Source: an uncultured Gammaproteobacteria bacterium (GTDB lineage: Bacteria; Patescibacteriota; Patescibacteriia; Magasanikbacterales; UBA922). From it: a stretch of 64,000 nucleotides of DNA. A program made the translations under genes and the position numbers. Positions 3,689-63,611 of the stretch are shown piece after piece. The notes beneath the pieces were generated by a model that was given only the letters and a program-made list of their open reading frames with translations, was not told where the DNA came from and did no database searches. Location: the NCBI GenBank assembly GCA_964345045.1, contig CAYFPM010000002.1, positions 36,286-100,285 on the forward strand, read 5' to 3'. Position 1 is the stretch's first letter; the number at the start of each line of letters is the position of its first letter.

Positions 3689-3768
3689 CTTATTAAAATA
3701 AAGTTTTTCAAACTCTTCATATTTAACTATACTTAAAAAAATAGCCTACTCTTAACCGATGTGATCAG

Positions 3769-3948
3769 CAGTTGTAGTTACAAAACACTTAAACGTCATC
3801 CTGAATGGAGTGAGTCCAAAGGACGAACGCAAGGAAGGATCTATTCGGACTACCACTGGGATCCTTCTCCCGACTGTGGTCGGGAGAAGGATGACTACAA
3901 TCTACTACGTCACGCTGTAGCTTTAGCGAAGGCGGACTCACTACAACC
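3769..3948. repeat. composite palindromic GTCAT-family element (core 3795..3895, outer inverted repeat gttgtagt/actacaac)
   Basis: Termini gtcatcctga...ggatgac plus an internal 11-bp perfect hairpin cttctcccgac/gtcgggagaag; it shares the gtcatcctga start and gaaggatc/gatccttc core with the copies at 50718 and 56280; the 65-aa ORF 3761..3958 inside it is probably not coding. Confidence 0.6.
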
Positions 3949-3985
3949 TAAAAAATAACCATCTAATTACTAACCACTTAATTAT

Positions 3986-32032: not shown

Positions 32033-32108
32033 TAAGTAATAAGCAGATTAAGCAGAGTAAAAATTATTTATGTTACTTACTCTGTCTATTCTGCTTAATC
32101 TGCTTATC
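32033..32108. repeat. AAGCAGATTA(G/A)GCAG palindromic repeat, copy 1
   Basis: taataagcagattaagcagagtaa...ttactctg..ctgcttaatctgcttat inverted arms. Confidence 0.65.
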
Positions 32109-32281: not shown

Positions 32282-34441
<2,160 letters not shown>

Positions 34442-37566: not shown

Positions 37567-37660
37567 CTGTCATTGCGAGGGAACGATAGCGACCGTCGCA
37601 ATCTCTAATACTTTCGTGTGAGATTGCCACGCTCGGCTTTGGCCGAGCTCGCAATGACAG
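37567..37660. repeat. GTCAT-family four-segment palindromic element (gtcattgcgag variant)
   Basis: ctgtcattgcgag...cgcaatctc / gagattgc...ctcgcaatgacag; local hairpins or long-range pairing are both possible. Confidence 0.65.
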
Positions 37661-47695: not shown

Positions 47696-47777
47696 CGTCA
47701 TTCCCAGCTTGACTGGGAATCCAGATAATGAGCAAGTCCTTGCACATAACTGGATTCCCGTTTGCACGGGAATGACG
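47696..47777. repeat. GTCAT-family four-segment palindromic element (cgtcattccc variant)
   Basis: cgtcattccca/tgggaatccag ... ctggattccc/gggaatgacg. Confidence 0.65.
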
Positions 47778-47823: not shown

Positions 47824-48381
47824 ATGAACAATAAACTAATAATTGGAATCGTAGGACAAATGGCTGCGGGCAAAGGAACCGCCGCTAATTATTTGAAAGA
47901 AAAGTATGGTGCCAGCACTTATACTTTTTCAACTATGCTAGGTGATGTGCTAGATAGATTTCATCTAGAAAGAAACCGAGACAATTTTATAAAAATATCC
48001 GAGCAAATGCGCTCTACCTTTGGTGAAGACATAATGGCCAAAACCATGGCCAATGACGTAAAAAAAGATAGTAATAATCTAATTGTAGTAGAGGGAGTAA
48101 GGAGAGACGCTGACATAGAATATCTAAGCCAAATGGAGGGATTTGTGCTCGTAGAAATTTTTGCTAATATGGAAAAAAGATTTGAAAGAACCAAAAAGCG
48201 TGGTGAAAAAATAGATGATAATGACAAAACTTTTGAAGAGTTCGAAGCAGATCACCAAAGATCTACCGAACTTTCTACAGTAGAAGTTGCCAAACAAGCC
48301 ACAATTAGAATAGATAATAATGGCACACTTGAAGAACTTTATACACAGCTAGACAGTTTAATTAAGCAAAATAAGGATTAA
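47824..48381 (+). CDS. P-loop nucleoside monophosphate kinase-like protein (adenylate/dNMP-kinase fold), specificity unknown
   Basis: P-loop GQMAAGKGT; lies inside the dNTP-metabolism gene run; the ORF-track start at 47818 is TTG, and the ATG at 47824 is more likely. Confidence 0.6.
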   Translation: MNNKLIIGIVGQMAAGKGTAANYLKEKYGASTYTFSTMLGDVLDRFHLERNRDNFIKISEQMRSTFGEDIMAKTMANDVKKDSNNLIVVEGVRRDADIEYLSQMEGFVLVEIFANMEKRFERTKKRGEKIDDNDKTFEEFEADHQRSTELSTVEVAKQATIRIDNNGTLEELYTQLDSLIKQNKD

Positions 48382-48426
48382 GCAGATTAGGCAGGTTAAG
48401 AATTTTACTTACTCTGCTTAATCCTG
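48375..48426. repeat. AAGCAGATTAGGCAG palindromic repeat, copy 2
   Basis: ggattaagcagattaggcag...tctgcttaatcc; overlaps the kinase stop codon and lies 10 nt before dut. Confidence 0.65.
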
Positions 48427-48435
48427 TTTATTTTT

Positions 48436-48861
48436 ATGAAAGTTAAAGTTAAAAAAACTCACCCAGATGCAAAAATGCCAAGTTACGCTCACCCCGGAGA
48501 TGTAGGTTTGGATATGTATTCTGTAGATGAAGCAGTTATAGAACCTGGTGATAGAAAATTGCTCAACTGCGGTTTTGCTCTAGAATTTCCAGAAGGTTAC
48601 GCCGCCATAGTAAAAGACAAAGGTGGCCCTCCTCACAAATATGGTTTACACTGCTTGGGCGGAGTTTTTGACGCCGGCTATCGTGGCGAGTACAATGTAA
48701 ATCTTGTAAATTTGGGTCACGAAAAAGTAACCATAGAAAAAGGACAAAAAATCGCTCAATTGGTTTTGTTTCCAGTAGCCATTGCCGAACTAGAAGAGAC
48801 CGAGGAATTGAGTGATAGTAGTAGAAAAGATGGGAAGTTTGGAAGCACTGGAGTATTCTAA
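48436..48861 (+). CDS. dut: dUTP diphosphatase
   Basis: Trimeric dUTPase motifs (GDVGLDMY, GVFDAGYRGE, RKDGKFGSTG). Confidence 0.9.
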   Translation: MKVKVKKTHPDAKMPSYAHPGDVGLDMYSVDEAVIEPGDRKLLNCGFALEFPEGYAAIVKDKGGPPHKYGLHCLGGVFDAGYRGEYNVNLVNLGHEKVTIEKGQKIAQLVLFPVAIAELEETEELSDSSRKDGKFGSTGVF

Positions 48862-48868
48862 CATTTTA

Positions 48869-48914
48869 GTTCATCGTTCTTGGTTCTTAGTTCTGAGAAC
48901 CAAGAACGATGAAC
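48869..48914 (+). promoter_or_regulatory. 18-bp perfect inverted repeat hairpin between dut and thyA
   Basis: gttcatcgttcttggttc - ttagttctga - gaaccaagaacgatgaac. Confidence 0.6.
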
Positions 48915-48929
48915 CATGAACTACTAAAT

Positions 48930-50239: not shown

Positions 50240-50719
50240 ATGCACCAAATATCTCTAGTTGCCGCAATTTCCAAAAACAACTGTATTGGCAAAGACAATA
50301 CCCTGCCTTGGGATATCCCGGCAGATATGAAAAGGGTAAAAGAATTAACCATTGGTAGAAATGTAATCATGGGACGCAAAACTTGGGAATCAATCCCAGA
50401 AAAATTCCGTCCATTACCAAAAAGAAAAAATATTATTATTACCCGAAACAATAATTTGGAAGTGCCAGAAGGAGTAGAAGTTTATAATAGTATCGAAGAA
50501 GCCATTGAAAGGCATAAAGGTGAAGAGATTGTTGGTTTTGGAGGTCAAAGAATTTTTGAAGAAATGATGCCAATAGCCGATGTGCTCTACATTACCCACG
50601 TCGATCAAGAAGTAGACGAGTGCCAAGCTTATTTCCCAGAGATAGATCAAAAAATTTGGCAAGAAACAGAAAGAGAAGATTTCGATGGCTATTCGTTTGT
50701 AACTTATAAAAAAACCTAG
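50240..50719 (+). CDS. folA: dihydrofolate reductase
   Basis: Region ISLVAAISKNNCIGKDNTLPW...GRKTWESIP; the ORF-track start at 50234 is TTG, and the ATG at 50240 is more likely. Confidence 0.9.
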   Translation: MHQISLVAAISKNNCIGKDNTLPWDIPADMKRVKELTIGRNVIMGRKTWESIPEKFRPLPKRKNIIITRNNNLEVPEGVEVYNSIEEAIERHKGEEIVGFGGQRIFEEMMPIADVLYITHVDQEVDECQAYFPEIDQKIWQETEREDFDGYSFVTYKKT

Positions 50720-50798
50720 TCATCCTGAGCGAAACGCAGTGGAGCCGAAGGATCCCAGTGGGAGTCCGAAGAGATCCTTCGCTCAGCTCAGGATGACT
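50718..50798. repeat. GTCAT-family palindromic element with 16-bp terminal inverted repeats
   Basis: agtcatcctgagcgaa ... ttcgctcagctcaggatgact with an inner gaaggatc/gatccttc hairpin; overlaps the folA stop codon. Confidence 0.7.
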
Positions 50799-52378: not shown

Positions 52379-52417
52379 AATGTACCGACGACGTGATAAT
52401 CTAACCTGTGAATAAAC

Positions 52418-52480
52418 AATAAGCAGATTAGGCAGAATAAGCAGTTTTTGCTTAATTCTTACTCTGCCTAATCTGCTTAC
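52418..52480. repeat. AAGCAGATTAGGCAG palindromic repeat, copy 3
   Basis: aagcagattaggcag pairs perfectly (15 bp) with ctgcctaatctgctt; 16 nt upstream of gatB. Confidence 0.7.
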
Positions 52481-52495
52481 TACTTACAAAAAGCT

Positions 52496-55214: not shown

Positions 55215-56273
55215 ATGAAAGACTCTCAACTAATCCTAAAAAATGGAATTACCTTCCGAGGCTACTCCCCTCTTTGGCAAAAAGACTTCTACCCAGGCGA
55301 GGTTGTGTTTACTACTGGCATGACTGGTTATGTAGAGTCTCTTACCGATCCGTCGTACGCCGGCCAAATCCTTACCTTTACCTACCCCCTAATTGGCAAC
55401 TACGGCGTACCAAGTAAAACAAAGTGGGAATCAAAAAAAATCCATGCTCGTGGAGTGATAATAAGCGAAACTACCGATAACTGGAGCCACAGCGCTGCCA
55501 AGTTGTCTTTTTTGGAATGGCTAAAAGAACAAAGTGTACCAATAATAACAGGGGTAGACACCAGAGAATTAACAAAATTGCTCCGAGATCACGGCGTGAT
55601 GCTCGGAGGTATTGATAGTTCTCTGTCATTGCGAGGAGCGGAGCGACGTGGCAATCTCATTGATCCGAACAAAACCAATTTAGTCGCCGAAGTCTCGATC
55701 AAAAAAACCAAAATTTATGGCAAAGGTAAAAAAACTTTGATCGCTGTAGACTGTGGCATGAAAGAAAATATTATTCGTGATTTACAAAAATTTAAGTGGA
55801 CCATAAAGCGTGTACCTTTTGATTATGATTACACCAATGAAAAATACGATGCCGTGTTTGTTTCCAATGGACCAGGTGACCCAAAGATGGCCAAAACCAC
55901 TATAGAAATTTTGAAAAAAGCAATGGCATCCAAAAAACCAATTTTTGGAATTTGCCTAGGCTCACAAATTATAGGGCTAGCGGCTGGAGCCAAAACCTAC
56001 AAACTTCCCTATGGTCACCGAGGCCAAAACCAACCATGCCAAAGTAGCCAAGATGAAACTTGTCTAATAACTAGCCAAAATCATGGCTATGCCATAAAAG
56101 AAAGTACTTTGCCAAAAGGTTGGTATGTTAATTTTAAAAATTTAAACGATAATTCTGTAGAAGGAATTGCCCACAAAAAATTGCCGTTTTTCTCAGTCCA
56201 GTTTCATCCAGAAGCTGCTCCAGGCCCTACCGATGCTAGCAATTTGTTTGAACAGTTTTATGATTTAGTCTAA
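55215..56273 (+). CDS. carA: carbamoyl-phosphate synthase small subunit
   Basis: N-terminal CPSase small-chain domain plus a class-I GATase domain (GICLG, FHPEA). Confidence 0.9.
   Translation: MKDSQLILKNGITFRGYSPLWQKDFYPGEVVFTTGMTGYVESLTDPSYAGQILTFTYPLIGNYGVPSKTKWESKKIHARGVIISETTDNWSHSAAKLSFLEWLKEQSVPIITGVDTRELTKLLRDHGVMLGGIDSSLSLRGAERRGNLIDPNKTNLVAEVSIKKTKIYGKGKKTLIAVDCGMKENIIRDLQKFKWTIKRVPFDYDYTNEKYDAVFVSNGPGDPKMAKTTIEILKKAMASKKPIFGICLGSQIIGLAAGAKTYKLPYGHRGQNQPCQSSQDETCLITSQNHGYAIKESTLPKGWYVNFKNLNDNSVEGIAHKKLPFFSVQFHPEAAPGPTDASNLFEQFYDLV
55623..55658 (+). repeat. in-frame copy of a GTCATTGCGAG-family half-element inside carA
   Basis: ctgtcattgcgagg-agcggagcgacgtg-gcaatctc versus the intergenic ctgtcattgcgagg-gaacgatagcgaccgtc-gcaatctc at 37567. 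Confidence 0.35.
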
Positions 56274-56279
56274 TTTTTA

Positions 56280-56367
56280 AGTCATCCTGAGCGAAGTGAA
56301 GGATCCCAGTTAAAGTAAGAGATTCTTCGACTTCACTCTGCGTTGCTCCGTTTCGCTCAGAATGACT
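56280..56367. repeat. GTCAT-family palindromic element between carA and carB
   Basis: agtcatcctgagcgaa ... ttcgctcagaatgact; its terminal atgact supplies the spurious ATG at 56362. Confidence 0.7.
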
Positions 56368-56385
56368 AAATACTCCGCAAAACCT

Positions 56386-59300
56386 ATGAATAAAGCACAA
56401 ACAATCAAAAAAGTCCTTATCCTTGGCTCTGGTGGCTTGCGTATTGGCCAGGCAGGAGAGTTTGACTACTCTGGTTCTCAAGCTATCAAAGCCTTGAAAG
56501 AAGAAGGTATTTTTACAATTTTGGTAAACCCAAATATTGCTACTGTGCAAACAGATAATTCTATGGCCGATCAAGTTTATTTGCAACCACTGAACGTAAG
56601 TACCATAGAAAAAATAATTAAAAAAGAAAAACCAGATTCTCTACTTCTTAGTTTTGGTGGTCAAACTGCTCTTAACTTAGGACTAAAATTGGATGAACTA
56701 GGCATTTTGAAAAAGTATAATGTAAAAATATTGGGGACTCCGGTAAGAACTATCAAAATCACCGAAGACCGTGAACTTTTTAAAAACTCTCTGGATGAAA
56801 TAAGCGTAAAAACTGCCAAAAGTATTGCTGTAACCAAAGTAACCGATGCTATAAAAGCTGCCAAAAAAATTGGCTACCCCGTTATGATGCGATCGGGTTA
56901 TTCACTTGGTGGATTGGGTTCTGGCATGGTCAAAAACGAAAATGAACTAAAAGAAAAAGCTACCGAAGCTTTGCATGCTGCTCCCCAAATTTTAATCGAA
57001 GAATATCTTGGTGGCTGGAAAGAGGTTGAGTACGAAATTGTAAGAGACTCGGCCGACAATACTATTACCGTATGCAACATGGAAAATTTTGATCCCATGG
57101 GTATTCATACCGGAGAAAGTATTGTAATAGCCCCAAGTCAGACTCTAAATAACCAAGAATACCACCTGCTTCGCGAAGTCGCTATTAAAACTGCCAGACA
57201 CATTGGCATAGTTGGCGAGTGCAATATCCAATACGCTCTTAACCCCAAAAATGGAGATTATAGAGTAATCGAAATTAACGCCAGGCTATCTCGTTCTAGT
57301 GCTTTGGCTAGTAAAGCTACTGGCTACCCTCTAGCTTTTGTCGCAGCCAAGCTGTCTCTGGGAATAAAGCTAAACGAAATCAAAAATGCCGTTACAAAAA
57401 AAACCTCGGCTTTTTTTGAACCAGCACTCGACTACTTGGTAGTAAAAATCCCTCGTTGGGATACAAACAAATTGAAAGAAGCCGATCGCAAAATTGGTTC
57501 GGAGATGAAAAGTGTGGGTGAAGTAATGGCTATTGGGAGATCTTTCCCAGAAGCTTTGCAAAAAGCGGTGCGCATGCTAAACATTGGGGTTTATGGCCTA
57601 GGGGATTACCCCTATAAAATAAAAAATTTAGAAGAAGAAATAGAATTTGCCACCGACCGTAGACTCTTTGCCCTTTATAAATTCTTTTTGAAAAACGGAT
57701 CAGTAGAAAAAGCTCATGAACTTTCCAAAATAGACAACTGGTTTTTGAGTCATTTGCAAACTATAGCCAAAGCTGAAAAAAAATTTAAAAAAGAAAAAAA
57801 GCTGACCAAAGAAACTTTGCTAGCAGCCAAAAAACTAGGCTTTTCGGACAAATACACTGCTGACAGAAGAAATGAAAGACAAGAAAATATTCGCAAATTT
57901 AGAATTAAAAATAAAATAGTACCGGTAGTAAAACAAATAGATACTTTGTCCGGAGAATTTCCAGCCGAAACCAATTATCTTTACCTCACTTACCATGGTA
58001 CAGAAAATGATTTGAAAAAATCTAAACAAAAACCAATTATTGTGCTTGGTTCTGGCCCCTATTGTATTGGCTCTTCGGTAGAATTTGACTGGTGTGCAGT
58101 AAATACAGCCAGAGAACTAAGAAAGCAAGGCAAATCTGCAATTATAATTAATTCTAATCCAGAAACTGTTTCTACAGATTACGATGAATCAGATAGATTA
58201 TATTTTGAAGAACTTACTCTAGAGCGCGTGCGCGACATTTATGATTTTGAAAATAGCCAAGGTTTGATTGTGTCTGTTGGTGGACAAATCGCCAACAACT
58301 TGGCACTACTGCTCGAAAAGAAAAATTACAATATTCTTGGCACCGCTGCCAAGGATATTGATAGAGCCGAAAACCGCCAGGTCTTTTCTGCACTTTTGAA
58401 TAAACTAGAAGTTGATCAACCTGCTTGGAGAGAAGTTGGAAATATTGCAGAAGCAGAAGATTTTGCAGACAAAGTTGGTTACCCGGTTTTGGTGCGCCCA
58501 TCTTATGTATTGTCTGGAGCCGCTATGAATGTAATAAAAGATGAAATGGAAATGGAAAAATACTTGGGTGACGCCGCTATAGTCTCACCAGATCACCCGG
58601 TGGTAGTCTCCAAATTTATAAAAAATGCCAAAGAGCTAGAGGTGGACGGCGTTGCCAAAAATGGTGAAATAATTATTTATGCTATTTCTGAACATGTAGA
58701 AAATGCTGGCGTGCACTCTGGAGATGCTACCATAGTTCTCCCGCCACAAAGACTTTATTTGGAAACTATTAGAAAAGCCAAAAATATTAGCAAAGAAATT
58801 GTAAAAAATTTAAATATTACCGGTCCGTTCAACATTCAATTTTTGGCCAAAAATAATTGGCTCAAAGTAATTGAATGCAACTTGCGCGCCTCTCGCTCTT
58901 TCCCTTTTGTCTCAAAGGTTACTGGCCATAACTTTATAAAAATATCTACTCAAATACTTCTTAATAAATACAAAAAAGAAGAATACCAAACTCTAGATCT
59001 AGACTATGTAGGCGTAAAAACTCCGCAGTTTTCGTACAGCCGACTAAAAGGAGCCAACCCAGTGGCTCATGTAGAGATGGCCTCTACTGGCGAAGTGGCA
59101 GTGATTGCCGACAATTACCTAGAAGCTTTTTACACCTCTTGGTTGGCTACAGAACAAGAGATCAAGGGCAAGAAGATACTCTTGAGCATTGGCGACGAAA
59201 ATAAGGCCAAGTTGCTAGAGCAAATTGAAAAACTTGACGAGCAAGGCTGGGAGATTTACTCTACAGAGAATACTCATAGGTACTTGGCCGAACGGGGCAT

Positions 59301-59577
59301 CGCCAGCACTTTTCTTTATAAACTTAGCGAAGAATCCAGCCCAAATATTGCCGAGGCAATTACCGAACAAGAAGTGGATTTGATTATAAATATTCCAAGG
59401 AATAATCTAAAGCAAGGGCAAATTACAGACGGTTACAAAATTAGGCGTCTAGCCATAGACCATCACATTCCGCTAATTACAAATCTAAAAATTGCTCAAG
59501 CTTTTTTGCAAGCTTTGATAGAACTAAAGGCAGAAAATTTAGAACCAAAAGCTTGGCAAGAATTTATTAAAAAATAA
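56386..59577 (+). CDS. carB: carbamoyl-phosphate synthase large subunit
   Basis: Duplicated ATP-grasp halves (ILILGSGGLRIGQAGEFDYSG and VLGSGPYCIGSSVEFDWC); start placed at MNKAQTIKKV. Confidence 0.9.
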   Translation: MNKAQTIKKVLILGSGGLRIGQAGEFDYSGSQAIKALKEEGIFTILVNPNIATVQTDNSMADQVYLQPLNVSTIEKIIKKEKPDSLLLSFGGQTALNLGLKLDELGILKKYNVKILGTPVRTIKITEDRELFKNSLDEISVKTAKSIAVTKVTDAIKAAKKIGYPVMMRSGYSLGGLGSGMVKNENELKEKATEALHAAPQILIEEYLGGWKEVEYEIVRDSADNTITVCNMENFDPMGIHTGESIVIAPSQTLNNQEYHLLREVAIKTARHIGIVGECNIQYALNPKNGDYRVIEINARLSRSSALASKATGYPLAFVAAKLSLGIKLNEIKNAVTKKTSAFFEPALDYLVVKIPRWDTNKLKEADRKIGSEMKSVGEVMAIGRSFPEALQKAVRMLNIGVYGLGDYPYKIKNLEEEIEFATDRRLFALYKFFLKNGSVEKAHELSKIDNWFLSHLQTIAKAEKKFKKEKKLTKETLLAAKKLGFSDKYTADRRNERQENIRKFRIKNKIVPVVKQIDTLSGEFPAETNYLYLTYHGTENDLKKSKQKPIIVLGSGPYCIGSSVEFDWCAVNTARELRKQGKSAIIINSNPETVSTDYDESDRLYFEELTLERVRDIYDFENSQGLIVSVGGQIANNLALLLEKKNYNILGTAAKDIDRAENRQVFSALLNKLEVDQPAWREVGNIAEAEDFADKVGYPVLVRPSYVLSGAAMNVIKDEMEMEKYLGDAAIVSPDHPVVVSKFIKNAKELEVDGVAKNGEIIIYAISEHVENAGVHSGDATIVLPPQRLYLETIRKAKNISKEIVKNLNITGPFNIQFLAKNNWLKVIECNLRASRSFPFVSKVTGHNFIKISTQILLNKYKKEEYQTLDLDYVGVKTPQFSYSRLKGANPVAHVEMASTGEVAVIADNYLEAFYTSWLATEQEIKGKKILLSIGDENKAKLLEQIEKLDEQGWEIYSTENTHRYLAERGIASTFLYKLSEESSPNIAEAITEQEVDLIINIPRNNLKQGQITDGYKIRRLAIDHHIPLITNLKIAQAFLQALIELKAENLEPKAWQEFIKK

Positions 59578-59592
59578 TTTAATTATTTAACT

Positions 59593-60513
59593 ATGCCAGT
59601 AAACTTCAAAGGCAGGGATATTATTTCTATACAAGATATATCCAAAGCAGATATTTTGCAGGTAGTAAAAATTGCAGAAAATTTGAAAAAAAATCCAAAA
59701 ACCAAATTATTAAAAGGCAAAGTAATGGGAAGTTGTTTTTTTGAACCTTCTACTAGAACCAGACTTTCTTTTGAAGCTGCTATGAATAAACTGGGTGGTA
59801 AAGTAATTGGTTTTGCAGACCCAAAAATGACTTCGTCCAAAAAAGGTGAAACCCTTTTTGACACTACCAAAATGGTCAGTCAGTACGTAGATGTTGTGGT
59901 AATGAGACATAGCATAGAAGGAGCTGCCAGAAGAGCCACCGAAGCCAGTAATGTACCGGTAATTAATGCTGGGGATGGTGCCAACCAACATCCTTCACAA
60001 ACTTTGCTTGATTTATTTACTATCAAAGAGTCCCAAAAAAAACTAAATGGTTTGCATATTGCAATAGTAGGCGATCTTAAATATGGTCGTACAGTTCATT
60101 CTCTGGCAGAAGCTCTCAAACATTTTGGGGCCAGACTTTACTTTGTAGCACCCAAAGAAATCCAAATGCCAAATTATATTTGTGATAAATTAAAAGCAGA
60201 GGGAGTTAAATTTTCCTTTCACGACACAATAGAATCTGTAATAAATAAAGTCGATATTCTATACATGACAAGAATTCAAGAAGAAAGATTTGCCGACAAA
60301 TTGGAATACGAAAAACTTAAAAACTCTTTTGTTTTGACTTTGGATCATTTGAAAAAAGCCAAAAGTAATATGAAAGTTTTGCATCCTTTACCAAGAGTTG
60401 ATGAAATTGAATACAAAATAGACAAAACTAAACACGCCTACTATTTTGAACAAGCTCAAAATGGTCTTTTTGTAAGACAAGCTCTCTTAGCCTTAACTCT
60501 TGGAAAAATCTAA
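59593..60513 (+). CDS. pyrB: aspartate carbamoyltransferase catalytic subunit
   Basis: Motifs STRTR and HPSQ. Confidence 0.9.
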
Positions 60514-60514
60514 T

Positions 60515-60976
60515 ATGAAAAAAACTTTGTCTGTAGCCGCTATCAAAAACGGCACTGTAATAGACCATATAGATGCTGGCAATGCTCTAAAAATTATCAA
60601 ACTACTAAGGCTACCCTCTGAACACAGACTGGTAACCACAGGTCTAAACTTGCCTAGCAAAGCCATGGGCAAAAAAGACATTATAAAAGTAGAGGGAAGA
60701 GAACTAACTGAAAAAGAAGTCAACACAGTGGCTATACTCGCTCCCAAAGCTAGCGTAAATATTATCAAAAACTACGAAGTCAAAAAGAAAATACCTATAC
60801 ATATTCCAGAAATAATTGAACAAATAATTAAGTGCCCCAACCCCACTTGTATCTGTAACAATGAAAAAATGGACACCAAATTCCATACCGAAGAAAGAAA
60901 AAAAGAATTAAGATTAACTTGTCACTATTGCGAAAAGCAATTTAAAAAAGAAGAAATTAAAGAATATAACGAATAA
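60515..60976 (+). CDS. pyrI: aspartate carbamoyltransferase regulatory subunit
   Basis: Motif IKNGTVIDHI and a C-terminal Cys4 zinc domain. Confidence 0.8.
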   Translation: MKKTLSVAAIKNGTVIDHIDAGNALKIIKLLRLPSEHRLVTTGLNLPSKAMGKKDIIKVEGRELTEKEVNTVAILAPKASVNIIKNYEVKKKIPIHIPEIIEQIIKCPNPTCICNNEKMDTKFHTEERKKELRLTCHYCEKQFKKEEIKEYNE

Positions 60977-60977
60977 C

Positions 60978-62201
60978 ATGATTGAAATAAAAAACGCTAC
61001 CAATATAAAAGGTGAAGTAAAAGATTATTTAATTGAAAGTTCTAGTGACAAAGTCATAGATGCCACTGGACTAACGATAATGCCTGCTCTAACAGACCCT
61101 CATGTTCACTTTCGTGTTCCCGGAGCCGAGCACAAAGAAAATTGGGTTACCGGAGCTAGGGCTGCTATAGCCGGTGGAGTGACCACAGTACTCGACATGC
61201 CAAACAATAATCCAAGCATTACTACCAAAGAAAGATTGCAAGAAAAAAAACAAATTATAAATGAGCAATTGGAAGAAGCAGAAATTCCTCTAAGATACCA
61301 ACTCTACATTGGAGCAACAGAAGACAAGGTAAACGAAATAGAAAATGCCAAAGGCGAATATGTTGGCATCAAAGTTTTTTTGGGCCAAAGCACTGGTGAC
61401 CTATTGATGCAAAGCCAAGCAGCTTTTGAAAAAGTTTGTGAAACAGCTGCCAAAGTTGGTGCCATAGTCGCCGTACATTCCGAAGATGATTTGGTTATGA
61501 ACGAAGCTAAAAGAGAACTTGAAAAAAATAAAGAAAAATTAGAAGTTACCGACCACCCCAAAATTAGACATCGTGAAGCTGCTATAGCCGCCATGAAAAA
61601 AGCTATTGCTGCTTGCAAAAAGTATGGCAATCGCATGTACATCTTGCACGCCAGTACCAAAGAAGAGGTAGACCTAATAAAAGAGGCCAAAGCCGATGGA
61701 TTGGATATTTTTCTAGAGACTACCCCTCACCATTTGTTCTTGGACGAGGTAGATCTTGGCAAAAAAGGAACCATGGTACAAATGAACCCACCGCTACGCA
61801 CCAAAGCCGATATAGAGGCCTTGTGGCAGGGTTTGAGAGATGGTACAGTGGATACTATTGGAACCGACCATGCCCCGCATACATTAGAGGAAAAACAACA
61901 GCCCTATGGCCAGGCTCCTTCTGGGGTGCCAGGCATAGAAAACTATTTGGCTTTGCTACTAAATGCAAATAAAGAAGGCAAAATAAGCCTAGAAAAAATA
62001 GTAGAAACTACTCAAAGAAATATAAACAAAATCTTTGGCCTAGAGCCAAACAAAGATGTAGTTTTGGTAGATTTGAACAAAACCAAAACTATAGAAGACA
62101 GCGACCAAAAAACCAAATGCGGTTGGTCGCCCTACTCTGGCATGACCCTAACTGGTTGGCCGGTTTATACAATAATGAAAGGTAAAATTTACAAAATTTG
62201 A
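60978..62201 (+). CDS. pyrC: dihydroorotase
   Basis: Metal-binding DPHVHFR motif and amidohydrolase fold. Confidence 0.85.
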   Translation: MIEIKNATNIKGEVKDYLIESSSDKVIDATGLTIMPALTDPHVHFRVPGAEHKENWVTGARAAIAGGVTTVLDMPNNNPSITTKERLQEKKQIINEQLEEAEIPLRYQLYIGATEDKVNEIENAKGEYVGIKVFLGQSTGDLLMQSQAAFEKVCETAAKVGAIVAVHSEDDLVMNEAKRELEKNKEKLEVTDHPKIRHREAAIAAMKKAIAACKKYGNRMYILHASTKEEVDLIKEAKADGLDIFLETTPHHLFLDEVDLGKKGTMVQMNPPLRTKADIEALWQGLRDGTVDTIGTDHAPHTLEEKQQPYGQAPSGVPGIENYLALLLNANKEGKISLEKIVETTQRNINKIFGLEPNKDVVLVDLNKTKTIEDSDQKTKCGWSPYSGMTLTGWPVYTIMKGKIYKI

Positions 62202-62211
62202 ATCATAACAC

Positions 62212-62679
62212 ATGGAATTTTTTTTACTACTATCATTTCTTTTGCTATATAGCGTATATCACAAACTTGAAAAAATTAATCTATTGGCAAAACACAATAC
62301 AATTGTTCTTAGCTATTACGAAAAGCTTCTTTTAAAGAAAGAGATTATAAACTTACATGACGTATTTGAGTCTAGGAGACTTATAAGAATAGACGTGGAT
62401 GATAAAAAATATAAAAAACTTGTTAAAACTGTTGTATCATGTGATAAAGATTTTAAAGAACTTAAACGTTATATAAGTTATTCTGATAAATATAAGAACT
62501 CAAGTGTAATGGAAGAAATGGCAGAGGATGCTGTGTACAAAAAAAATCATATTGATGTACTAGAAATACTAAAAATAATAAATAAAAATAAAATAAAAGA
62601 AAGTGGAGAGAAAGAGGAAGAATGGGTATATAGAAATTATGGAAAAAATTTCTTCTTTTCAGATGAAGAAGAAATATAA
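62212..62679 (+). CDS. hypothetical AT-rich ORFan inserted between pyrC and pyrD
   Basis: 155 aa at about 25% GC; Lys/Glu-rich with an N-terminal hydrophobic segment. Confidence 0.45.
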   Translation: MEFFLLLSFLLLYSVYHKLEKINLLAKHNTIVLSYYEKLLLKKEIINLHDVFESRRLIRIDVDDKKYKKLVKTVVSCDKDFKELKRYISYSDKYKNSSVMEEMAEDAVYKKNHIDVLEILKIINKNKIKESGEKEEEWVYRNYGKNFFFSDEEEI

Positions 62680-62702
62680 GTAACTGGAATCTTAATTTAA
62701 GT

Positions 62703-63611
62703 ATGTTAGAAACAAATTTTTTGGGAAAAAATTTTTCCAATCCCCTAGTTTTGGCTTCGGGAGTTTTAGGAGTTACTGGCGCCAGCATGGCTAGAGTTAT
62801 TAGAAATGGAGCTGGCGGAGTAACTATCAAATCATTATCAAAAGAACCAAGAAAGGGCCACCCCAATCCAACCATGTTTGGAACTGAAGAATACTTCCAC
62901 AACGCAGTTGGATTATCTAATCCCGGAGTCCACGAAGGCCTAGACGAAATTAAAAAATACAAAGAACTAACTCCGGCTCCAATGATTGGGTCTATTTTTG
63001 CTGGCACTCCAGAAGAATTTGCCGAAGTGGCCGAGGTATGTAACCAAGCTCCAATCGATATGCTAGAAATTAATGTATCTTGCCCAAACGTAAGTACAGA
63101 ATTTGGCGACCCTTTTGCCTACTCTGCCCCGGCAATAGAGACCATTACCAAAAAAGTCAAAGAAAAATCCAATGTGCCAGTAATAATTAAACTATCTCCA
63201 AACGCTTGGAATATTGCCGAACTAGCCAAAGCAGCCGAAGCTGCTGGAGCCGATGGACTGTGTTGTGTAAACACTGTTAGCGGCATGGTAATTGATGTGC
63301 GAGCCAGAAGACAAATTCTGCACAACCGCCAAGGTGGGATTTCTGGAAAAGCTCTCTTCCCGATTGCCCTTAATGCTGTACACCAAGTTTACAAAGCTGT
63401 AAAAATCCCCATTATTGGAACTGGCGGCATCACCACTGGCGACGATGCTTTGCAGATGATTATGGCTGGAGCTACCCTACTTGGTGTTGGCTCGGCAGTT
63501 TACCACCGCGGCGACGAAGTATTTGCAGACATTACAAATGAAATGAGAAATATAATGCAAGAAGAAGGGATAAATAATTTAGATGAGATTCGGGGTGTAG
63601 TTCACGATTAA
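62703..63611 (+). CDS. pyrD: dihydroorotate dehydrogenase catalytic subunit (class 1)
   Basis: Region GVTIKSLS...NVSCPN...IIGTGGI. Confidence 0.85.
   Translation: MLETNFLGKNFSNPLVLASGVLGVTGASMARVIRNGAGGVTIKSLSKEPRKGHPNPTMFGTEEYFHNAVGLSNPGVHEGLDEIKKYKELTPAPMIGSIFAGTPEEFAEVAEVCNQAPIDMLEINVSCPNVSTEFGDPFAYSAPAIETITKKVKEKSNVPVIIKLSPNAWNIAELAKAAEAAGADGLCCVNTVSGMVIDVRARRQILHNRQGGISGKALFPIALNAVHQVYKAVKIPIIGTGGITTGDDALQMIMAGATLLGVGSAVYHRGDEVFADITNEMRNIMQEEGINNLDEIRGVVHD

Follow-up and report, generated by a model that had tools for sequence, protein, structure and literature searches.

The 64-kb window analysed here, a stretch of contig CAYFPM010000002.1 from a metagenome-assembled genome (MAG), carries a family of short palindromic elements, one of which occupies positions 50719-50797 between folA and tmk. 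A total of 12 hairpin units were found in the window, arranged as five inverted doublets, one intergenic singleton and one singleton inside carA. These elements are very probably copies of a hairpin class that has been described under the names CGTC-tagged repetitive extragenic palindromes (REPs), NTS and Ssn-related motifs (SRMs). Apart from the carA unit, which is in frame, all units are intergenic (11 of 12), and four of the five doublets lie between co-directional genes. The intergenic elements are placed as follows, with the flanking genes taken from Pfam and from metagenome gene calls:

3795-3895, doublet, between a thioredoxin-like gene and a DsbD/thioredoxin fusion gene
32293-32329, singleton, between a hypothetical gene and gyrB
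37569-37658, doublet, between a DUF5671-like gene and a lactate/malate dehydrogenase gene
47697-47776, doublet, between a dCMP deaminase gene and a nucleotide-kinase-like gene
50719-50797, doublet, between folA and tmk
56281-56366, doublet, between carA and carB

An earlier reading of the window, made from its letters alone (hereafter the original prediction), had listed six copies, all of which are present where it had placed them, but it missed the unit inside carA at 55625-55656(+). The gene that it had labeled dcd belongs to the dCMP/cytidine deaminase family (PF00383). It also held that the elements overlap stop and start codons. This is true only of the folA stop codon TAG, the last base of which is the G of the AGTC tag at 50719, while the starts of tmk (50811) and carB (56386, from metagenome-contig gene calls) are both downstream of their elements.

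Each unit is directional, and the same layout was found in 12 of 12 cases: an H-GTC tag, a stem that is initiated with AT and continues for three to nine bases past it, an interior that varies, and the complementary half of the stem, which ends in AT and is followed by a C. Full copies consist of two such units in inverted orientation, with their GTC tags pointing outward. The four-segment pairing noted earlier is the automatic outcome of two inverted copies of one hairpin unit, and what had been taken for a half copy at 32291 is a genuine copy that is in fact a complete single unit, 32293-32329(-). Units were identified with the rule GTCAT + N3 ... N3' + ATC within 80 nt, which took the place of the published SRM pattern and was validated by permutation and with control pentamers; a perfect-stem detector was dropped, as it was over-strict and unspecific. 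The 12 units are listed below, and those on the minus strand are cited in the text by their higher coordinate:

3795..3841, plus strand: tag CGTC, GTCATCCT...(31-nt interior)...AGGATC; left half of doublet 3795-3895, recognized by the own-complement partner rule
3860..3895, minus strand: tag AGTC, GTC ATCCTTCTCCCGAC-CACA-GTCGGGAGAAGGAT C, with a 14-bp stem, a 4-nt loop and the tail CCCAG; right half of doublet 3795-3895
32293..32329, minus strand: singleton, tag TGTC, GTCATTGCGAG-GGCGTctgaaagaACGCC-GTGGCAATC; about 60 nt upstream of gyrB
37569..37603, plus strand: tag TGTC, GTCATTGCGA...TCGCAATC, tail CTC; left half of doublet 37569-37658
37622..37658, minus strand: tag TGTC, GTCATTGCGAG-CTCGGCcaaaGCCGAG-CGTGGCAATC; right half of doublet 37569-37658
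47697..47721, plus strand: tag CGTC, GTC ATTCCCAG-CTTGA-CTGGGAAT C, tail CCA, with an 8-bp stem and a 5-nt loop; left half of doublet 47697-47776 and the canonical CGTC-1/dRS3/NTS-like form
47753..47776, minus strand: tag CGTC, CGTCATTCCCGTGCAAACGGGAATCCAG, with an 8-bp stem and a 4-nt loop; right half of doublet 47697-47776
50719..50754, plus strand: tag AGTC, GTCATCCTGAGCGAA...CGAAGGATC, tail CCCAG; left half of the folA/tmk doublet 50719-50797
50773..50797, minus strand: tag AGTC, GTCATCCTGAGCTGAGCGAAGGATC; right half of the folA/tmk doublet, ending 13 nt short of the tmk start codon
55625..55656, plus strand: singleton, tag TGTC, GTCATTGCGAGGAGCGGAGCGACGTGGCAATC; in frame within carA
56281..56305, plus strand: tag AGTC, GTCATCCTGAGCGAAGTGAAGGATC, tail CCCAG; left half of the carA/carB doublet 56281-56366
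56321..56366, minus strand: tag AGTC, GTCATTCTGAGCGAA...(long interior)...GAAGAATC; right half of the carA/carB doublet

Three types of units can be distinguished. Type A (GTCATCCTGAGCGAA...GAAGGATC) comprises units 3795, 3895, 50719, 50797 and 56281, as well as 56366 with T for C; type B (GTCATTGCGAG...GCAATC) comprises units 32329, 37569, 37658 and 55625; and type C (GTCATTCCCNN-loop-NNGGGAATCCAG) comprises units 47697 and 47776. The short labels used for the unit types are GTCATCCTGAG-type, GTCATTGCGAG-type and GTCATTCCC-type. Type A, i.e., the GTCATCCTGAGCGAAGCGAAGGATC type, which is also written GTCATCCTGAGCGAAG...GGATC, is the commonest in the window, and the form of unit 56281..56305 is the most widespread one in public data. 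The tags are CGTC in three units (3795, 47697 and 47776), TGTC in four (32329, 37569, 37658 and 55625) and AGTC in five (3895, 50719, 50797, 56281 and 56366), and the tails begin with CCA (two units), CCC (three), CTC (six) or CTA (one), so that the first C is invariant and the remainder variable. Nine of the 12 units have basal stems of 5-7 bp and interiors of 12-36 nt, some of which contain a mini-hairpin of their own. A possible third, degenerate unit (GTCACGCTGTAGCTTTAGCGAAGG) was noticed at about 3914-3937, near doublet 3795-3895. It should also be noted that the interior of the type-A consensus GTCATCCTGAGCGAAGCGAAGGATC (e.g., in metagenomic loci L224 and L259) contains d(GCGAAGC), from which window unit 56281 is one base off. 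The sequence d(GCGAAGC) is a known DNA mini-hairpin of extraordinary stability (PMC13037366), and its presence in the type-A interior fits a structure that is selected at the level of single-stranded DNA.

The recurrence of the units is far above expectation. The motif GTCATYSNNAG has 10 matches in the window compared to 1.18 expected, and none of 100 shuffles reached 10. Of the GTCAT sites on both strands of the window, 69 in all, exactly 12 are followed within 80 nt by ATC preceded by the complement of the site's next three bases, where about one is expected, and these 12 are the units listed above. Blocks of 13 nt (5') and 11 nt (3') recur between units. When folded as single-stranded DNA, the doublets have energies of -15 to -29 kcal/mol, with z-scores of -3.0 to -8.4 relative to dinucleotide shuffles. 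The original prediction had seen compensatory substitutions between the inner hairpins of the copies at 32291 and 37621; these are not substitutions, as the interiors are unrelated and unalignable and each happens to form a small hairpin. Covariation does exist in the basal stem, in which the pairs CCT/AGG, TGC/GCA and TCC/GGA replace each other between sub-types. In 80 loci around homologues of an Ssn-like protein that is described below, 192 of 760 GTCAT sites pair with their own triplet, compared to 30.3 +/- 5.6 after permutation, and 18 different triplets are involved; control pentamers in the same test gave 5-20. The basal stem therefore covaries across sub-types, and this takes the place of the earlier argument from compensatory substitutions, which is not valid as it stands.

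The anatomy described above is the one that defines a known superfamily. Prokaryotic REPs were divided by Di Nocera et al. (2013, BMC Genomics) into a GTAG-tagged and a CGTC-tagged superfamily, and the latter includes dRS3 of Neisseria as well as RPE-4 and RPE-6 of Rickettsia (PMC3733652). Members of the CGTC superfamily have an unpaired CGTC tag (variants TGTC and CCTC), stems of 8-9 bp that almost always start with AT, loops of 4-5 nt and a tail that is roughly CCA; they mostly form inverted dimers, prefer spacers between co-directional or convergent genes, include some in-frame intragenic copies and have no associated transposase (PMC3733652). The window elements resemble them in the CGTC/TGTC tag, in the AT-initiated stems (12 of 12 units), in the short C-rich tail to the extent of its invariant first C, in the dominance of inverted dimers, in the location within co-directional spacers close to the upstream stop codon, in the occasional in-frame intragenic copy and in the lack of an associated tyrosine transposase. 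They differ in their host, the phylum of which is not among the five listed. The earlier suggestion that the copies resemble REPs, bacterial interspersed mosaic elements (BIMEs) or Rickettsia palindromic elements (RPEs) therefore holds, but the accompanying remark that the family could not be named does not, as the elements match a described family of the RPE kind. Literature searches with raw 11-mers of the elements returned primer coincidences alone.

The Neisseria repeat was later redefined by Chenal et al. (2025, Nat Commun) as the 28-nt NTS CGTCATTCCCGCGMAVGCGGGAATCYRG and generalized to the SRM (PMC11893778). Its cognate protein SsnA, a 94-aa single-domain GIY-YIG protein (cd10448), binds the motif solely as single-stranded DNA and cuts a few nucleotides upstream of it, while the RNA form of the motif is not bound; mutagenesis revealed that cutting depends critically on GTC, and binding on the C that comes after the palindrome (PMC11893778). 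The ssnA genes are typically flanked by the motif, and the authors likened the motif-gene-motif layout to an insertion sequence (PMC11893778). The bases critical for Ssn, i.e., GTC 5' and C 3' of the palindrome, are present in 12 of 12 window units, and the type-C units 47697 and 47776 are near-identical to the Neisseria NTS CGTCATTCCCGCGMAVGCGGGAATCYRG. Other features common to the NTS/SRM-Ssn system and the window elements are a directional unit, the HGTC tag and the AT-initiated palindrome with its obligatory C, and ssn-type genes in metagenomes and in the closest relative of the window are flanked by the window sub-types. In contrast to that system, most window units have short basal stems and long, variable interiors, their host is a Candidate Phyla Radiation (CPR)/Magasanikbacteria-like MAG rather than a proteobacterium, and the elements occur here as isolated doublets in biosynthetic operons instead of clusters around surface-protein genes.

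Units of the same types are widespread. An exact scan of a viral/proviral contig collection with the 15-mer GTCATCCTGAGCGAA yielded at least 120 stretches, on unrelated contigs of very different GC content, and in most of the matches listed the 15-mer is followed by (G)CGAAGGAyC, either directly or after an inserted stretch. The GTCATCCTGAGCGAA units occur in these contigs as singlets and as perfect doublets. In the GC-rich contigs L022, L074, L080, L096 and L100 of this collection, a type-A unit is followed by GCGGTTGCTCTTGCTTTTGC... and then by short runs of CTGA(Y)CC-type repeats. Among 80 genome loci around carA homologues, the units are concentrated in the nearest relatives of the window, at up to about 0.9 per kb: 10 units were found in L127, eight in L143, 16 in L145 and seven in L149, each in about 18-21 kb. 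Only sporadic, low-complexity unit matches were found in the carA loci of Chlamydiae and gammaproteobacteria.

Comparison of orthologous spacers revealed both filled and empty sites, as the original prediction had proposed to check. The carA/carB spacer is 0-30 nt long in about 70 of 78 relatives, compared to 112 nt in the window, 220 nt in L149 and 647-785 nt in L143, L145 and L127, in the last three of which it is full of units. The folA/tmk junction is empty in L130, has a type-A doublet in L129 and contains unrelated AT-rich palindromes in L143 and L145. Given that orthologous spacers are empty in most relatives, the doublets probably arrived by insertion; the filled and empty spacers support insertion and turnover, but no specific mechanism. 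At L149:11040-11225, a GTCATTCTGAG/GTCATCCTGAA type-A doublet is nested within an NTS-like GTCATTCCCG doublet, which points to successive insertions into one spacer.

A link to ssn genes was found in L127, a Magasanikbacteria MAG that is the closest relative of the window, with a carA 69% identical and the same folA-tmk...carA-carB order. A GIY-YIG motif search of 123 viral-collection and 80 genome loci identified one open reading frame (ORF), in L127 alone. Its product matched PF01541 (E = 2e-13), while an NCBIfam scan matched no family, and the gene has two direct units upstream and an inverted unit downstream. This Ssn-like protein has thousands of homologues of about 95-100 aa, many of which are on very short contigs. 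In 80 metagenomic loci (L204-L283) that were fetched with a profile of these homologues, units with outward tags have a density of 2.97 per kb up to 250 nt from the gene, compared to 0.25 per kb elsewhere (12-fold), and at least one correctly oriented flanking unit is present in 57 of the 80 loci and units on both sides in 29. The flanking units include exact type-A GTCATCCTGAGCGAAGCGAAGGATC as well as NTS-like sequences.

The folA/tmk spacer of L127 (L127:6170-6355) holds a type-B doublet that encloses a 26-codon ORF with the peptide MKEDYYYIYIMANRHWRDIFNELTPW. When aligned to the L127 Ssn-like protein, this remnant, MKEDYYYIYIMAN...WRDIF, scored 47.2, compared to 23.9 +/- 6.0 for shuffles (maximum 46 in 500). 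The parts of the protein that it matches are the GIY strand at the N-terminus and one of two W-x-D-I stretches, the choice between which is ambiguous. The alignment is suggestive of an internally deleted ssn gene, and the remnant with its doublet may represent a stage on the way from an ssn cassette to a doublet that has lost its gene.

By analogy with the published system, a unit would fold into a hairpin whenever its DNA becomes single-stranded, e.g., during replication, transformation or repair. A single-domain GIY-YIG Ssn of about 95 aa would bind the hairpin together with the C that follows it and nick the single-stranded DNA at a distance of a few nucleotides from the GTC tag, on its 5' side, and it would be inactive on double-stranded DNA, RNA and the complementary strand. 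These steps have been shown in the literature for other species and are extrapolated here to the window. An ssn gene between two inverted units would then amount to an insertion sequence-like cassette, and the gene-less doublets in operon spacers would most likely be related to such cassettes or be miniature forms derived from them, having spread by inserting mainly between genes and on rare occasions in coding linkers that tolerate them. The evidence for an origin of the gene-less doublets from ssn cassettes, and for mobility of these cassettes, is circumstantial. Inside operons, the elements would also be transcribed and fold in mRNA, and an effect on expression is plausible as a secondary consequence. 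A broader proposal, which we consider tentative and on balance doubtful, is that SRM-ssn-SRM cassettes are a class of mobile elements driven by a GIY-YIG nuclease that acts on single-stranded DNA, that the window doublets are their derivatives, comparable to miniature inverted-repeat transposable elements (MITEs), and are actively colonizing operon junctions (folA/tmk and carA/carB) and even a coding linker in a CPR-like lineage, and that the long-loop types (GTCATCCTGAGCGAAG...GGATC and GTCATTGCGAG...GCAATC) are the dominant pan-bacterial forms that the SRM pattern misses. A nuclease-driven mobile element had already been raised as a hypothesis by the authors of the 2025 study (PMC11893778). 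If this proposal is true, nuclease-driven cassettes would answer what mobilizes the "transposase-less" CGTC REPs.

Several points weigh against the family assignment or against mobility driven by Ssn. To our knowledge, no published work shows that Ssn mobilizes the repeats, and we know of no GIY-YIG nuclease that forms covalent intermediates of the kind used by transposases. A tblastn search with 120 homologues found no ssn/GIY-YIG gene in the window and the roughly 19 kb by which its flanks were extended, i.e., within 83 kb, which is unlike the NTS/SRM-Ssn system. The flanks were taken from L284/L285, which belong to the metagenome assemblies of project PRJEB17505; three other contigs carry an identical CarA and are 100% identical to the window, and so show no presence/absence polymorphism at the strain level. 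The published SRM pattern, HGTCWYN(0-2)YYVSBRHN(0-5)WNVSBRGN(0-2)RNCYNB, fits only one of the 12 units, at 47777(-), compared to 0.13 expected in shuffles, and has one further, unrelated match inside carA at 55287(-). The long-interior units miss this pattern because it permits a loop of at most 5 nt, while types A and B have interiors of 12-36 nt. Similarly, families CGTC-1 to CGTC-4 are defined by 8-9-bp stems with 4-5-nt loops, and nine of the 12 units fall outside these limits; only 47697 and 47776 fit them, and unit 3895 (14 bp and 4 nt) does so loosely. The AGTC tag of five window units is not listed by Di Nocera et al., although the H of the SRM pattern allows it. The types GTCATCCTGAGCGAAG...GGATC and GTCATTGCGAG...GCAATC are long-loop variants that, judging by its text, are absent from that catalogue (PMC3733652). 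The nine units with short stems and long interiors would thus have to be new families of the CGTC superfamily. The empty-site comparisons rest on distant relatives (57-69% CarA identity), and their junctions are not clean.

The unit inside carA adds a further point of this kind. It lies at 55625-55656 within the carA ORF (55215-56273) and encodes part of ...SLSLRGAERRGNL... in the hypervariable stretch that links the two domains of CarA. Chance is excluded by the blocks of 13 nt and 11 nt that the unit has in common with other type-B units, and the linker is six residues longer than in Chlamydiae. However, the nearest relatives without the motif have a linker of equal length, and a simple insertion is therefore not demonstrated. 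As Ogata et al. reportedly described in 2000, RPEs are inserted in frame in protein genes of Rickettsia. The carA unit is like these elements in that a palindromic repeat is translated in frame at a surface/linker position of an essential enzyme. It is unlike them in that there is one such copy per 64 kb, that it is a single 32-nt unit rather than an RPE-1-type element of 100-150 bp, and that no clean insertion relative to orthologues is demonstrated. The carA genes of two relatives (L145:6205-7578 and L143:10001-11275) have three large in-frame insertions of 20-45 residues each (e.g., NPTPRPSPYRGGK... and ...PLPPSQGG), and a GC-rich palindrome that belongs to another family, CCCCTCCCCTTATAGGGGAGGGA, accounts for at least one of these. 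The carA gene of this lineage has thus tolerated palindromic elements repeatedly.

Among the alternative explanations, the one that fares best, although we consider it improbable, is that selection acts on the elements as RNA structures in the mRNA of nucleotide-metabolism operons, where they could serve as operon-internal attenuators, as barriers to RNase or as translational couplers, and that their spread as DNA is incidental. Four of the five doublets lie between co-directional genes and would be transcribed; their folds are strong, with the z-scores given above, and REPs elsewhere are known to stabilize upstream mRNA (PMC3733652). However, Rfam searches at gathering and permissive thresholds (E <= 1) had no match at the elements, and no element qualified in an intrinsic-terminator scan, as none is followed by a T-run. 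Each doublet has one unit per strand, one copy is inside a coding region, and the same 25-nt unit is found in hundreds of unrelated genomes and in all contexts, including the flanks of ssn genes. The orthologous spacers that are empty in most relatives indicate that those operons do not need the elements, and the published Ssn does not bind the RNA form (PMC11893778).

It is also very unlikely that the doublets are REPINs, i.e., doublets of classical REPs that are mobilized through single-stranded DNA intermediates by RAYT, a Y1 HUH transposase of the IS200/IS605 superfamily. Such systems have been documented thoroughly (Bertels and Rainey, 2011; Nunvar, 2010), and REPIN/RAYT elements have the same architecture, with a hairpin, an unpaired conserved 5' tag, intergenic inverted doublets and singlets, and no target-site duplication. 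In both classes, the singlets resemble decayed or split doublets, the presumed catalytic gene is bracketed by repeats, and the hairpin of single-stranded DNA is the recognized form. The tag of the window units is, however, (H)GTC and not GTAG, and the gene that such units flank encodes a GIY-YIG nuclease fold and not an HUH Y1 transposase. A six-frame search for the HUH...Y(I/V)xxNP motif identified no ORF in the window and only one RAYT-like ORF, in the distant locus L174, in 2.4 Mb of fetched loci; no GTCAT unit is present in the 145 nt visible upstream of this ORF, the downstream side being beyond the locus end. No RAYT or IS200 gene flanked by CGTC units was found in any species examined by Di Nocera et al. 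(PMC3733652). A further difference is that the mobility of the GTC class is putative.

The original prediction had further considered miniature transposons with terminal inverted repeats (TIRs). That the doublets are conventional MITEs, derived by deletion from DDE-type insertion sequences, with TIRs recognized as double-stranded DNA and target-site duplications, is hard to sustain. Each doublet does end in inverted repeats of 15-22 nt, MITEs typically have such a size (80-100 bp), and presence at orthologous spacers varies between relatives. The 16-bp TIRs reported earlier are present but imperfect: the copy at 50718 reaches 82% over 22 nt, and the one at 56277 reaches 76% over 33 nt. These "TIRs" are themselves hairpin units, and their sequence varies across copies while the internal hairpin is kept. 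The complete lone units (32293-32329 and 55625-55656) are inexplicable by a TIR pair. Direct reading of the flanks of the five doublets revealed no consistent direct repeat or target-site duplication, apart from a trivial TAA at 56281/56366, and no transposase is present in the window. Finally, a chance collection of GC-rich palindromes within AT-rich spacers, for which the mutually unrelated interiors of the copies might speak, is refuted by the match and partner counts, as well as by the blocks common to the units and the same units in relatives and public contigs, and is virtually impossible.

The assignment of the window elements to the CGTC-REP/SRM class leaves the basic picture in the literature unchanged, as two earlier descriptions of the family exist and a cognate protein has been identified. 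The new findings are limited to the long-interior sub-types outside the published definitions, their abundance in a CPR-like lineage and the circumstantial evidence for an origin of gene-less doublets from ssn cassettes. Current censuses of the family probably undercount it, because the long interiors of the most widespread sub-types are not captured by the SRM pattern. For annotation, odd palindromes become a named feature, CGTC-REP/Ssn-motif hairpin repeats, which break assemblies, generate spurious small ORFs and can sit in frame in real proteins. A 65-aa ORF that was called at 3761-3958 (L285:13183-13380), spanning doublet 3795-3895 and its flanks, is almost certainly spurious. The metagenome contig L286 ends inside the same element, which is consistent with repeats breaking assemblies.

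In addition to the GTCAT units, the window contains a second, unrelated family of AT-rich palindromes at 32039-32107, 48363-48436 and 52413-52486, which are built from 16-21-mers resembling AAGCAGATTAAGCAGA in inverted pairs. With up to three mismatches allowed, 11 matches were counted compared to 1.14 expected; two of these (5520 and 41859) are outside the three sites. The GTCAT singleton at 32293 has one copy about 190 nt upstream of it. At 48867-48923, between a dUTPase-like ORF (48436-48861, identified by eye) and the next gene, there is a near-perfect palindrome, GTTCATCGTTCTTGGTTCTTAG / CTGAGAACCAAGAACGATGAAC, with 22-nt arms that are 95% complementary; in Rfam it had weak chance matches to miRNA/snoRNA models alone.

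The complete de novo pyrimidine pathway is clustered at 55215-63611 of the window and in L284, and includes carA, carB, pyrB, pyrI, pyrC, pyrD with an electron-transfer subunit, pyrE and pyrF. The nearest CarA homologues in GTDB representative genomes are 57-69% identical and are labeled Patescibacteria, Candidatus Magasanikbacteria or uninformatively; after this handful of CPR-like MAGs, the next homologues are from Chlamydiae (59-67% identity). From these labels and the gene order common to the window and L127, the window is assigned, with moderate confidence, to a Magasanikbacteria-like CPR bacterium. That Chlamydiae come next, while the nearest labeled relatives are Patescibacteria, hints that the pyrimidine operon may have been acquired horizontally.

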